This document shows positions 30,999 to 37,500 of a stretch of DNA of 64,000 nucleotides, piece by piece. The stretch is from Opitutales bacterium (lineage in GTDB: Bacteria > Verrucomicrobiota > Verrucomicrobiia > Opitutales > PNEW01): contig CBDANS010000007.1 of assembly GCA_965197745.1 (NCBI GenBank), positions 1,184,001-1,248,000 on the forward strand, in the 5' to 3' direction. A model generated the notes under the pieces. That model worked only from the letters and a program-made list of their open reading frames with translations, ran no database searches and was not told the DNA's origin. Within the stretch, counting starts at the first letter, position 1, and each line of letters starts with the position of its first letter. The position numbers and the translations under genes were made by a program.

Positions 30999-31670
30999 AT
31001 GAATCAGTATTCCCTGGACAATTATCAGCGTTCGATTCTTGTAACGCCGAATGGTGAGGATAAAATTCTTTTGCACTCCTGCTGCGCGCCTTGTGCTGGG
31101 GAAATAATGGAAGCCCTTGTCGCGTCAAATATTAAACCCACCATTTTCTTTTATAACCCGAATATTCATCCACGCAAGGAGTACGAAATTCGCAAGGATG
31201 AGAATATTCGTTTTGCCAGGAAATTAGGTCTTACTTTTGTTGACGCTGACTATGACAAGGAAAACTGGTTTGACCGGGTAAAAGGGCTGGAGCACGAACC
31301 GGAACGTGGAGCGCGTTGCACGGTTTGTTTTGATATGCGCTTTGAGCGCACCGCGCTTTACGCCGTGGAAAATAATTTTAACCTTATTTCAAGTACTCTG
31401 GGTATTTCACGATGGAAAAATATGGAGCAGATTAATAGTTGTGGGGTGCGCGCAGCCAATCGATATCCCAAAATGGAATACTGGACTTTTAACTGGCGTA
31501 AGAAAGGCGGCAGTCAACGTATGATAGAATTATCAAAGCGTGAAAAATTCTATCAGCAGGAGTATTGTGGTTGTGTTTACAGTCTTCGAGATACCAATCA
31601 ATGGCGGGTAGAGCATGGTCGACCTCGTATCGAACGCGGGGAAAAATTCTACGGTAGCAACGAAGTCTGA
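30999..31670 (+). CDS. queH: Epoxyqueuosine reductase QueH
   Basis: [40 protein letters not shown]. Confidence 0.95.
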
Positions 31671-31736
31671 TAATACATTTACGGTAAAGGCAATCAGCAA
31701 TTGTAATAAAATCAATTTGCTATGATGCTGATCATG

Positions 31737-31766
31737 TTGACAAAAGAGAGTATATTATCATAGCTT
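31737..31766 (+). promoter_or_regulatory. Putative sigma70 promoter
   Basis: TTGACA (31737-31742), 18-nt spacer, TAGCTT (31761-31766). Confidence 0.5.
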
Positions 31767-31842
31767 AAGAGGATAACGAATAAAGTATTTATTGGTCATA
31801 AATACTCTAATTCAAGTAGTAACCTTAACGAGGAGGTGATCC

Positions 31843-31932
31843 ATGCATAATAGACTAATTTCGAAACCAGGATTTTTAATGAAGAGTTTAAAATGCAAGA
31901 GCGATTTAAAGATGGAGGTAATTCATCTGTAA
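31843..31932 (+). CDS. Candidate 29-aa small ORF (MHNRLISKPGFLMKSLKCKSDLKMEVIHL)
   Basis: ATG 5 nt after AGGAGGT; below the ORF-track length cutoff. Confidence 0.4.
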   Translation: MHNRLISKPGFLMKSLKCKSDLKMEVIHL

Positions 31933-32082
31933 ATTGGTGAAGGGTAATGGATTCTTCCTATTCTGGTGGGAGTCTTGACCAATTTAATTTTAATCGGTAA
32001 GTTTTCAAAACGAGAACTAACCTTATCTTTGTTGGGTGCCTGGTTTAGATCAACCGGCAGTTAAAATTTTTAAACCTTAACC

Positions 32083-32118
32083 AAAGCCTGCGAGACGAAT
32101 CCGTCTCGCAGGTTTTTT
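32083..32118 (+). terminator. Rho-independent terminator
   Basis: aaaGCCTGCGAGACG-aatc-CGTCTCGCAGGT followed by a T-run. Confidence 0.9.
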
Positions 32119-32274: not shown

Positions 32275-33486
32275 GTGAAAATGTTTTTTTCTAATTGGAC
32301 TCGAGACTTCAGGCTATTGGCAGTAGCCGTTTTCTCCCTGGGGGTCTTTTTCGGCGTGCAGATGACTTTATTTAATAACTTTATCGTTGAACGCATAGGA
32401 ATTGAGGCACACGAATTGGGCTACATAGAAGCCATGCGCGAGGTACCTGGGTTGCTGAATGTTATCTTTATTGCCTTAATGGTACGAGTCGTCGCCCCCT
32501 TATTGGGAGGGTTCTCGCTTATTATCCTGGGGGTGGGAATTATGGGTTATGCGGTATCGAGCACTGTGGTTTCAATCGCGATATTTTCCGTAGTATGGAG
32601 CATCGGCTTTCATGGCTGGATAACACTCCAGCATGCGATGGCCTTGAAATTTTCTCCCGGTTTAGATAAAGGGGTATGGCTGGGGAAGCTCCATAGCGTA
32701 AATAGCTTCGCCTGGTTGCTTACCATCGGTATCTGTATGCTGACTTATCGCTATCTTCATTATGATGGGCTGTTTATTATGGCGGGGATTATTACCATCC
32801 TCGGTGGCGTGGCCATATTTTTTGCCTCAAAAGATAAGCCGGTAGTCCCCGAGAAAGGATTTGTTTTTAAAAGTCGTTACCGCCTCTATTATATTCTTAA
32901 TGTTCTGGATGGCTGCCGCAGGCAGATCTTCATGACTTTTGCCATTTTCGCCCTGGTTAAAGTGCATGGCATGCCAATCACCACGACGATGATCTTAGTT
33001 CTCATAAATAAGATACTCGTCACGCTGGTGGCTCCACTGATGGGCCGTTTAGTTGATAAACATGGAGAGCGATTGATGCTGAGCTTTACTTATTTCGGAT
33101 TGATATTCGTTTTTTTAGGGTACGCCATAGTTGAATTGCGACCTATGCTCTATGTCCTTTTTTGTATTGATAATCTTCTCTTTTTCGAAGGGATAGCTCT
33201 GACAACCTATATTAACAAAATTACACCCACTGAAGAGCTGAAGCCGACACTCTCAATGGGGGTGACGATGAATCATGTAGCCGCAGTCACCGCCCCTTTA
33301 ATTGGTGGTCTGGTCTGGTATTATTTTGGCTATCAGATAATCTTTTTCAGCGGCGCGGTTATCGCCTTGTGCTCATTTCTCGTATCCCAATGGGTTGACC
33401 CCGAAGGTTTATTAAAAGCAGAGGAAGACAGTGATGTCATTGCTCTCGCGGACGGGGTAGTGGTACCCTCTAAAATACCCGGGTAA
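32275..33486 (+). CDS. MFS transporter
   Basis: About 12 TM segments, REVPG, GRLVDKHGER motif. Confidence 0.88.
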   Translation: MKMFFSNWTRDFRLLAVAVFSLGVFFGVQMTLFNNFIVERIGIEAHELGYIEAMREVPGLLNVIFIALMVRVVAPLLGGFSLIILGVGIMGYAVSSTVVSIAIFSVVWSIGFHGWITLQHAMALKFSPGLDKGVWLGKLHSVNSFAWLLTIGICMLTYRYLHYDGLFIMAGIITILGGVAIFFASKDKPVVPEKGFVFKSRYRLYYILNVLDGCRRQIFMTFAIFALVKVHGMPITTTMILVLINKILVTLVAPLMGRLVDKHGERLMLSFTYFGLIFVFLGYAIVELRPMLYVLFCIDNLLFFEGIALTTYINKITPTEELKPTLSMGVTMNHVAAVTAPLIGGLVWYYFGYQIIFFSGAVIALCSFLVSQWVDPEGLLKAEEDSDVIALADGVVVPSKIPG

Positions 33487-34543: not shown

Positions 34544-37500
34544 TCATTCAATTGTAATTTCTTCGGTGGTAACAGGTATATTCTGTCCATCCGCGTTTTC
34601 AAAAGTAGCGGCATTACTTTGTGTTGGTTGTGGGGTCCCATCTGATTTAAAATTATTTTGTAAAATCAAAGTACTGAACCCGGGTGTGCTTGACCCACTT
34701 GGCGCGACAACAATGGCATTTCCATTACTCTGAGAAAGATCCCCTCCCGTTATTCTCAACCCCGGATTTGGTGCCTGGACCGTAAATGAACCCTCACCAA
34801 ACAAGAGGTGCGGTAACGAATCTCCACTGGCATCAATGTCACCAACGGTTATCCGCACCGCTATCGGCACTCCCTCCGCGACGACCCCGGTTCTTCCGGT
34901 GTCAGCGGAAAAAACCGTATTCGATAACTGCATGCCGCCTATCCCTGTGGAGTTGGTGACTTCCACGAGGGTTACGTTTGCTTCGGCATTATACACTTCT
35001 CCTTCTGGGAATAATGCCTGATTGACGGCGTTGATCGATCCCACGGTGAAGATACTAAAGAAAGTACTGGAGTCGGCTCCATCAATGAGCACACTGGGAC
35101 GTCCGGTTACATACAATACTTCCTGATTGTATTTCGTCGGAAAAGCGGCGGGGAGAAAAGTCCCCGGGTCGAGCGTTATCGTAAAGCTCCCATTGCCGGA
35201 AAATTCTACCTGGACGATATCCTCATTTTCGTCGAGAAAAGAAACCCGGGTAATCTGGTTAACTTTAGCGCGCAGACTTATATTTTGACCGGTGAGCAGA
35301 ACCTGGTCGAAAATATTTCCACTCGGATGCATGATATCTTCACCTACCACCTCACCGGATCCGCTTAGGACCAAACCTATTTCAACCAGGGCAACATTGT
35401 GATTACCCCCGGCTGCAAGTAAGGAAACATTAGAAACCCCTGAGGGTATATTGAGTTGACCGGAGGAATTGTCCCCCCAGCCCTCGACGGATCCTTCATT
35501 ATCAAGAGCAAGGCTGTGGTTTAACCCGGCAGCAATAGAAGTCACGGCACTGGCGTTAAAGGCAACAGTCAATTCGTCTTTAGCTTTAAAACTGGAGGCG
35601 ACAACCAGCCCGATTTCACCAAATTCCAATTGATTGAATTGATTGTCTCCCCAGGCCGCAACCTGGCTGTCGTCAGTTAAGGCCAGGCTATGATTGCCAC
35701 CTGCGGATACCTTTATGACGTCGGACAATCCAGCTGGCACATCAGTCTGGCCAAAATTATTTCGTCCCCAGGCAATAACTGTGCCGTCACTTTTCAGAGC
35801 TAAATTATGAAATCCACCGGCATCTATAGCTGTAATATCCGAAGGATTTCCCGGGGGCACTGAAGCCTGTCCGTCTGAATTATTACCCCAACCGATAACT
35901 GTTCCATCAGATTTTAAGGCCAGGCTGTGAGTCGATCCAGCGCTTACGGCAATAGCATCGGAAAGTCCGTCGGGTGGTTGTGTCTGCCCGAATTCATTAT
36001 TTCCCCAGCCAACCACGGTGCCATCACTCTTTACTGCGAGGCTGTGATTATGTCCGGCCGCGATGGCTATTACATCAGTAAGATCTCCGGGCACATCGAC
36101 CTGTCCCAAGTTCATCCCTTCCCCAGCCGACAACCGTTCCGTCAGCCGTCAAGGCGATATTATGATCCAATCCGGCAGAGATAGCAATCACTTCCGGACT
36201 ATCGTCGGTACTGACGGCCTCGGGTAATTCCTGCTGGGCAAAATCATTATTGCCCCATGCTTCAACCTCTATAATTTCATCGATAAATGGAGGTTCATCA
36301 TCAATAATCGGAGGTTCCTCATCCGGCGGCACTTCAATCGGCGTAAAACTGAAATCGTCGATACTCGTTATACTGGTGCCTATAGACGAGAGCAATGCTT
36401 CATTATCGCTTAATTCAATTTTACCAATTCCGCCCGGCGCCCCCAATTCAAGGGAGTTAAATCTAAAGTATATTGGGTTTACTATCTCATCGGGATTAAT
36501 ATTGTCGGGCAACATGGGAACGGAGGTGATGAGGTTGCCCTCAGTATCGAAAACATCAATATTACCATCATCGAGGGCTAAATTAGCTGCGTAAAATTGC
36601 ACATCGCGAGCGGGAGTTTCAAAATTAATGGTTGCGGTGAGTCCATTGGTAATGGACCAGAAATTTTCGGGAGAGTGATATAACTGTGTAAAGGATGTGA
36701 GCCCGCCCACGCTGCCACCAGTAAAAGTGGCGCTCCTGGATGACTCTCCAATGGTAAAGCTCCCGACAAATTGATCGGTTCCATCGGCGAGAATATCTTC
36801 AAAATCTGTAAACACCTCAAGGTTAGGGGGTGGTGGGAGAGGGGTAATATCTTCCAGTAAGACTGGAATTGGCTCTAAACCCCGATTGCTGCTGGTAAGA
36901 ACGACGTCATAGCGAAATGTTTCAGCACTGCCATCAGAAGCTGTATATGTCTCGTCAAAAGTAGATTTTACTATGCCGAGATTACGGGCCAACCATAAAG
37001 TTTCGAGAATGCTGCCATCTTCGGTATAAGACACCCCTTCCTCTACACCAGTCTCACTGTAGTCACGAACAACGACAACCTTGAGCGTTTCATAAATACC
37101 GACCGGTGTATCAACAGTTTCAATCCCTTCGACGAAAACACTGATACTTACCGACCCCTGCGCGGTAAAAGCGACACCAAAATCGATCCCGCTACTAGAA
37201 TAGGCGGCAGTCGAAGAAAAGCTGTCCCCGATATTTATAAATCGAGGAGTAATAAAAAGGGGGCTTCAAATAAGCTGATATCTGATTCATCAGTACCGCC
37301 GTGATCTTCACGGTGGACCGCGAATTCGAATTCATCCTGGCTGTAATAGATACCTCTAAATAAATCCAATATTTCTCCACCAACAGAAACGGTGGAAGTA
37401 GCAAGATCAAAAGCGAGGGTTGTCTCCCGGCCGTTGATAACACCGCCGGGCAGGTTCAGGCGATTTACGTTTAATCCTAACGATATACTGATAGGAGACT

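Follow-up and report, generated by a model that had tools for sequence, protein, structure and literature searches.

The closest described counterparts of the RNA unit analysed here, which lies at positions 31737–32118 of a 64,000-nucleotide stretch of an Opitutales genome (referred to as the window), are found among the dual-function sRNAs. The named comparison set comprises SgrS/SgrT, AzuCR/AzuC, VcdRP/VcdP and Spot 42/SpfP. These RNAs contain ORFs of about 15–45 codons, and translation and RNA function can compete on one and the same molecule (PMC12612679, PMC8915982, PMC8672173, PMC8916003). As in these systems, the unit would join a small ORF and a conserved RNA domain in a short transcript that has its own promoter and terminator (both predicted here). 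Unlike in the dual-function sRNAs, long-range helices enclose the ORF, a Shine-Dalgarno (SD) sequence of 12–13 nt stands in front of it, and the unit has no sequence or Rfam match. Moreover, the dual-function sRNAs named above stem from Proteobacteria or Firmicutes, whereas the host of the unit belongs to an SD-poor verrucomicrobial lineage. By this comparison, the unit appears to be most like a dual-function sRNA or a small-protein message in which translation competes with RNA folding.

Three further systems share single traits with the unit. Firstly, the mccA message of the microcin C operon is subject to ribosome-controlled termination and stabilisation, and ribosome binding alters its fold; the operon also encodes an exporter, and mccA has 7 codons (PMC4231749). 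Like mccA, the unit contains a tiny and strongly ribosome-bound ORF (a prediction in our case), which is followed by an intrinsic terminator that would yield a short transcript. Its ORF is longer (27–29 codons), however, its folds show no upstream sequence that interferes with the terminator, and in contrast to the mcc operon neither an MccB-like adenylating enzyme nor any other gene for maturation is located nearby. The exporter of the mcc operon is of the MFS type. Secondly, a small ORF and a terminator located 5′ of a transporter gene are also found in the leader attenuators of efflux and resistance genes and resemble the rnTrpL/peTrpL system, where the terminated leader can act as an sRNA and the peptide can act in trans (PMC7298713, PMC7968998). 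Unlike leader-peptide attenuators, the unit has no antiterminator in the predicted folds and no run of regulatory codons in its ORF, and a long conserved domain extends from the ORF to the terminator. Thirdly, the STAB-SD of the Bacillus cryIIIA leader is a 5′ mRNA stabiliser with long complementarity to the 16S rRNA, which has been proposed to hold the 30S subunit and thereby protect the RNA, and which is not followed by a start codon. The SD of the unit is likewise situated near the 5′ end and has a long 16S complementarity, but here an ATG follows at a distance of 5–6 nt and the ORF is retained. The literature matches listed for small RNAs in Opitutales included none on such regulatory RNAs, and almost nothing is in print on the regulatory RNAs of Verrucomicrobiota.

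Organization and distribution of the unit

The feature is real, conserved and unusual. It is flanked by queH and a gene encoding an MFS transporter, all three being oriented in the same direction, and is composed of the following elements (window coordinates):

30999–31670, plus strand: upstream gene queH, epoxyqueuosine reductase (PF02677, E = 9e-67); context
31737–31766, plus strand: promoter-like site, with TTGACA at 31737–31742, an 18-nt spacer and TAGCTT at 31761–31766
31778–31813, plus strand: 5′-proximal hairpin (helix 1); 15 pairs, 2 of them compensatory, 94% of cells paired
31831–31843, plus strand: extended SD, exactly complementary over 13 nt to the 3′ tail of the genome's own 16S rRNA
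31843–31932, plus strand: small ORF of 29 codons (27 codons in the sister genus)
31852–31874, plus strand: 5′ strands of helix 4 (31852–31856) and helix 5 (31866–31874), within codons 4–11
31959–32035, plus strand: 3′ domain, the most conserved block, with the 3′ strands of helices 5 and 4, the motif GACCA, hairpin 9 and the anti-SD mimic
32036–32060, plus strand: hairpin 10; 8 pairs, 4 of them compensatory, directly 5′ of the terminator
32083–32118, plus strand: intrinsic terminator with a G+C-rich stem, an AATC loop and six T; 13 pairs, 5 of them compensatory
32275–33486, plus strand: downstream gene of an MFS_1 transporter; context, regulation by the unit not being implied

The TTGACA-18-TAGCTT promoter proposed in the initial annotation is present as described there. 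Its −35 box is perfect and invariant in all seven homologous sequences; the −10 box is weak and varies among the homologues, and a generic promoter scan of the window did not list the site. Transcription would start near position 31772. Directly 5′ of the −35 box, a TGATCA palindrome (31729–31736) is invariant in the same seven sequences and may be the binding site of a regulator. Between the upstream gene queH and the unit (31671–31736), no terminator-like hairpin is present, and queH transcripts may enter the unit and stop at its terminator.

BLAST detected the unit in 4 of 41 genomes, namely in the window's own and in all three others of its family, which represent a second genus; the 37 genomes outside the family yielded no match. 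A pattern derived from the conserved blocks recovered two of the family genomes again and additionally three metagenome contigs. Since two metagenome contigs are identical over the unit, six distinct sequences were used in the comparisons. A covariance model of the core (209 positions) found the same four genomes among 151 Opitutales genomes, with one copy in each, and retrieved nothing from the 147 other Opitutales genomes or from 150 further genomes of the phylum. This narrow distribution, within one family of mostly uncultured bacteria, limits the wider impact of the finding.

Across the two genera, the sequence identity from promoter to terminator amounts to 70–90%, and the region right after the terminator is unalignable between them and contains a 60-nt indel. 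Invariant or nearly so are the −35 box, the loop UGGUC of the 5′ hairpin, the SD together with the ATG, the sequence CGAAACCAGG and the block 31959–32035. The order queH, unit, MFS gene is kept in four of four family genomes, and the unit occupies the same place on the three metagenome contigs.

A search of the whole window against Rfam 15 gave no match at the gathering score; the best relaxed matches had E-values of at least 0.2 and remained far below the gathering scores, and ARAGORN predicted neither a tmRNA nor a tRNA. The first reading of the sequence had recognised no known RNA family, and this assessment holds at both Rfam thresholds, which also returned no known riboswitch or leader. 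Several identities were considered and rejected. The genome's own 6S RNA is located elsewhere (C7:998082–998271). For a RiPP or microcin precursor, a type I toxin, a T-box or a retron, no maturation, reverse-transcriptase or partner genes were identified nearby, no Rfam model matched, and the encoded peptide is hydrophilic. Judged by these searches, the unit belongs to no described family; it qualifies well as a candidate both for a new RNA family and for a new regulatory RNA.

Extended Shine-Dalgarno sequence and small ORF

The SD sequence AGGAGGTGATCCA (31831–31843) overlaps the ATG of the 29-codon ORF. The 16S rRNA gene of the same genome, which was located with the Rfam model RF00177, ends with ...CTGGATCACCTCCTTTCT, and the 13-nt complementarity initially postulated from the conserved 16S 3′ end is therefore exact in this organism. 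In the sister genus, the SD is complementary to the 16S rRNA over 12 nt, and the SD, the ATG and their spacing of 5–6 nt (6 nt in the window) are invariant among the homologues. The duplex of SD and 16S tail has a predicted energy of −22 to −26 kcal/mol.

Such long matches are rare in the 4.45-Mb genome. Of 7061 GGAGG sites, two reach 13 nt and three reach 12 nt when the antisense of the rRNA gene itself is set aside. Only one of these five non-rRNA sites of at least 12 nt, the one at 31831–31843, combines a position outside any long open frame with an ATG at working distance. The second 13-nt match is found outside the window on the minus strand of contig C7 near position 1700542, where an 8-codon ORF with a GTG start follows it; because this match is inside a long open frame, it is probably due to chance.

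The use of SD sequences is low throughout the genome: a 4-mer SD at positions −22 to −4 precedes 18.5% of 2697 ORF starts, which were crudely called, compared to a background of 10.9%. In the related order Verrucomicrobiales, SD sequences are reported to be largely lacking (PMC10798248). The rpsU gene (C6:284295) has an A/T-rich leader without an SD, in contrast to the strong-SD rpsU described for Bacteroidia. As rpsU lacks an SD here, Bacteroidia-style control was dropped as an analogy. A conserved RNA carrying the longest functional-looking SD of the genome suggests that the anti-SD tail is still in special use in this SD-poor lineage. The rRNA operon was also searched for further complementarity to, or mimicry of, the element, and the SD match alone stood out. 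A second SD-like site reported for the unit, GGAGGT at 31914–31919, does exist in the window, but the other genus has GGGAGT or GGGATT at this place, and the proposed layout with a double SD is thus not conserved.

The 29-codon ORF noted at the outset was corroborated by its retention in the sister genus, and the position of its stop codon is kept between the genera through a change between TAA and TGA. Within the sister genus, six codons vary only synonymously, one serine codon occurring in all four TCN forms, and the amino acid replacements are conservative. The variable sites are distributed over the three codon positions as 5/3/9 (chi-square ~3.3, 2 df, not significant alone), a bias that is suggestive. 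Between the genera, only about 10 N-terminal residues are similar (M-x-N-R-x-x-x-K-P-G) and the rest of the peptide is poorly conserved, a loose conservation that would be more in keeping with a regulatory uORF than with a functional protein. Translation of the ORF is likely on these grounds, with an exact peptide sequence that seems only loosely constrained. Searches of Pfam-A and NCBIfam with three peptides of 27–29 residues retrieved no family at E-values up to 10, and tblastn of the peptide against the window's own genome revealed no paralogue.

A second tiny ORF is present at 31947–32000 in the same frame, with 17 codons in the window and 21 in the sister genus, and five of the six sequences share its stop. 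It has no SD, its stop is lost in one relative, and the substitutions in it are not of the synonymous type; for these reasons its conservation was attributed to the RNA level.

RNA fold and terminator

The fold of the whole unit has a minimum free energy (MFE) of −102 kcal/mol (z = −5.65), and none of 100 shuffled sequences folded equally well. In the consensus structure, which was computed with RNAalifold from the six distinct sequences of the two genera, 95% of cells pair. Compensatory changes occur in 16 of 97 pairs, compared to 4.8 ± 1.9 in 500 shuffles (0/500 reach 16) and 1–5 in slid controls, the structure having been derived from the same six sequences on which it was tested. Covariation is strongest in the 5′ hairpin, in hairpin 10 and in the terminator. 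The original proposal of a structured unit equipped with a promoter-like site and a terminator thus receives support from conservation, fold stability and covariation alike, and most of its structural details could be retraced. The perfect 9-bp hairpin at 31784–31806 forms the core of the longer covarying helix 1 (31778–31813), and its loop UGGUC (31793–31797) is invariant. Of three further hairpins proposed, those at 31996–32022 and 32037–32059 correspond to helices 9 and 10, but the one at 31930–31986 arises only as an alternative local fold. The heptamer AACCTTA does occur three times, at 31821, 32019 and 32073; its frequency in the entire window is nevertheless at chance level (9 found, 8.9 expected), and what recurs in relatives is only the ACCUU core of copies two and three.

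Long-range helices connect the start of the ORF with the 3′ domain. Codons 4–5 pair with 31971–31975 in helix 4 and codons 8–11 with 31959–31967 in helix 5; each of these helices contains one compensatory pair, and 98–100% of their cells are paired. The anti-SD mimic (32018–32026), an ACCUU stretch, forms a long-range helix with the SD (31831–31839), in which no covariation is found and of which 7 of 9 pairs form in the window. The predicted energy of this internal closure of the SD ranges from −5.5 to −12 kcal/mol. Within the 3′ domain, which also includes hairpin 9 (32000–32017), the invariant motif GACCA (31977–31981) is complementary to the invariant loop UGGUC of the 5′ hairpin, and neither offers any variation by which the pairing could be tested. 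The MFE structure of the window's own sequence, in which AUUGGUCA pairs with UGACCAAU, prefers an 8-bp version of this UGGUC:GACCA pairing.

On the plus strand at 31975–32003, the most conserved block also contains a promoter-like sequence, TTGACC and TAAGTT separated by a 17-nt spacer, that resembles the promoter of the unit. This site might be an alternative explanation for the conservation of the 3′ block, and transcription from it could yield a nested 3′ RNA of about 115 nt with the same terminator end. Its −10 box is weaker in one relative (G003).

The strong terminator assigned to the 3′ end of the unit was recovered at 32083–32118 with its five compensatory pairs, and it was formed in all six sequences under every constraint tried. 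Two sets of thermodynamic predictions bear on its behaviour. When the transcripts were cut before the 3′ arm of the terminator, no consistent partner of the 5′ arm emerged in any of the six sequences, and when the ORF region was held single-stranded, as it would be under ribosomes, the 3′ block rearranged into local hairpins and the terminator stayed unchanged in six of six. Because the 5′ arm lacks a partner and blocking of the ORF leaves the terminator unchanged, we take the terminator to be constitutive and the unit to stand alone and to be gated by translation, insofar as modelled folds can indicate this.

Proposed translation gating and competing explanations

In our best reading, the unit is lineage-specific and constitutes both a message for a peptide of 27–29 residues and a self-closing structured RNA. 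That it forms a stand-alone small-ORF RNA that is gated by translation and extends over about 345 nt, from approximately 31772 to 32118, has in our estimation about an even chance of being correct. This reading draws on the observed conservation, the covarying helices, the length of the SD, the preserved ORF and the lack of a terminator alternative in the folds, and it is limited by a supporting structure that comes from only six distinct sequences of two genera. Transcription, translation, the switch between a closed and an open state, and the output are steps that we infer. Once the transcript is complete, the conserved 3′ domain would pair with the SD and codons 4–11, the SD being closed by the anti-SD mimic (32018–32026) and the codons being covered by helices 4 and 5, and through this pairing the RNA would shut off its own translation. 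A 30S subunit could win the competition during transcription or whenever the fold is opened, since the predicted energy of its pairing with the SD (−22 to −26 kcal/mol) surpasses that of the internal closure (−5.5 to −12 kcal/mol). Translation would then unzip the domain, whereupon the conserved 3′ block would refold locally. The terminator is predicted to form in both states, and for this reason position 32118 should be the end of the unit, with the MFS gene probably being transcribed from a promoter of its own. Either the peptide or a trans-acting 3′ domain could be the output, or the two together, as in the dual-function sRNAs. An SD that pairs with an anti-SD mimic inside the same RNA and is wrapped around a small ORF would provide a compact and testable model of ribosome binding versus folding.

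A bolder version of this scheme, which we regard as rather improbable, sees the unit as a ribosome-gated RNA switch of an SD-poor lineage, whose SD of 12–13 nt docks the free 16S 3′ tail with high affinity. Binding of the 30S subunit and translation would open the self-closed domain of about 200 nt and expose a conserved 3′ module that consists of the anti-SD mimic and the loop-complementary block. The RNA might in this way report translational capacity, or how many 30S subunits offer an accessible anti-SD tail, and relay this information to other targets. If true, a ribosome-gated switch would represent a new class of regulator, distinct both from ordinary small-protein messages and from attenuators.

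The shared orientation and the constant location ahead of the MFS gene, seen in four of four genomes, suit a leader equally well. We consider it unlikely, but a serious contender, that the unit is a leader-peptide attenuator or another type of cis leader of the MFS gene, in which translation or stalling decides between a stop at 32118 and read-through. Parallels would be the leaders by which efflux and resistance genes respond to antibiotics, and the MFS protein is weakly similar to drug-efflux families. Directly 5′ of this gene and in the same direction, a strong SD precedes a small ORF and an intrinsic terminator comes after it, an arrangement kept throughout the family (4/4), and a peptide that is poorly conserved apart from its N-terminal R-x-x-x-K-P-G is to be expected if the act of translation itself matters. 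The MFS gene, moreover, has no SD, and no clear −35 box was seen in front of it. The folds, however, argue against attenuation, as the 5′ arm of the terminator remained partnerless in 6/6 truncated transcripts and the terminator persisted in 6/6 ORF-blocked ones, giving no sign of an antiterminator. Besides, the ORF stops approximately 155 nt before the terminator, and the highly conserved structured domain lies in between. The terminator is in turn followed by a poorly conserved spacer of 110–160 nt before conservation resumes near a TATAAT-like box 16–22 nt upstream of the MFS start; this box is the conserved part of the spacer and fits an MFS gene with its own promoter. Orthologues of the MFS gene with 52–59% identity in four other Opitutales families are preceded by short unrelated upstream regions from which the element is absent. 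As for an action on the gene through base pairing, the duplex energy of the element with the MFS start region, the sole target region tried, was no better than for shuffled sequences, by a method that is poor for long sequences.

It is distinctly improbable that the unit acts as a riboregulator without any coding role, with a long SD that binds the 30S subunit as a ribosome-binding stabiliser or sponge and an ORF that is incidental. The conserved complementarity of 12–13 nt is well above the need of initiation, the predicted SD:16S energy of −22 to −26 kcal/mol would suit such a binder, and RNA-level conservation of the 3′ domain exceeds the conservation of the ORF. An incidental ORF is, however, difficult to reconcile with an invariant ATG at 5–6 nt from the SD and with 27–29 codons in both genera whose stop is kept despite the exchange of TAA and TGA. 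The element has no complementarity to the rRNA operon beyond the SD, and a single-copy RNA would presumably be a poor stoichiometric sponge for ribosomes. The earlier suggestion of a CsrB/RsmZ-like sponge for a GGA-binding protein such as CsrA, inspired by several GGA triplets in the window's copy, can practically be dismissed, because no csrA was found (PF02599 is missing from the detected families of the window's 92%-complete genome and of the three other carriers, 4/4), and, moreover, the second GGAGG site is not conserved and the conserved GGA triplets are placed in helices or in the SD rather than in repeated hairpin loops.

Two observations concern the genomic surroundings. One MFS orthologue, L019 (G003:C4:49037–50227), has an in-frame TAA within the match and is devoid of the GTG start of the other sequences, an ATG three codons upstream possibly serving as start; the gene may be broken, or the assembly of this 82%-complete genome may contain an error. 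Further downstream in the window (34544–36133, minus strand), a protein of 529 amino acids with RCC1 repeats is encoded, a member of a eukaryote-like repeat family in a verrucomicrobial genome.
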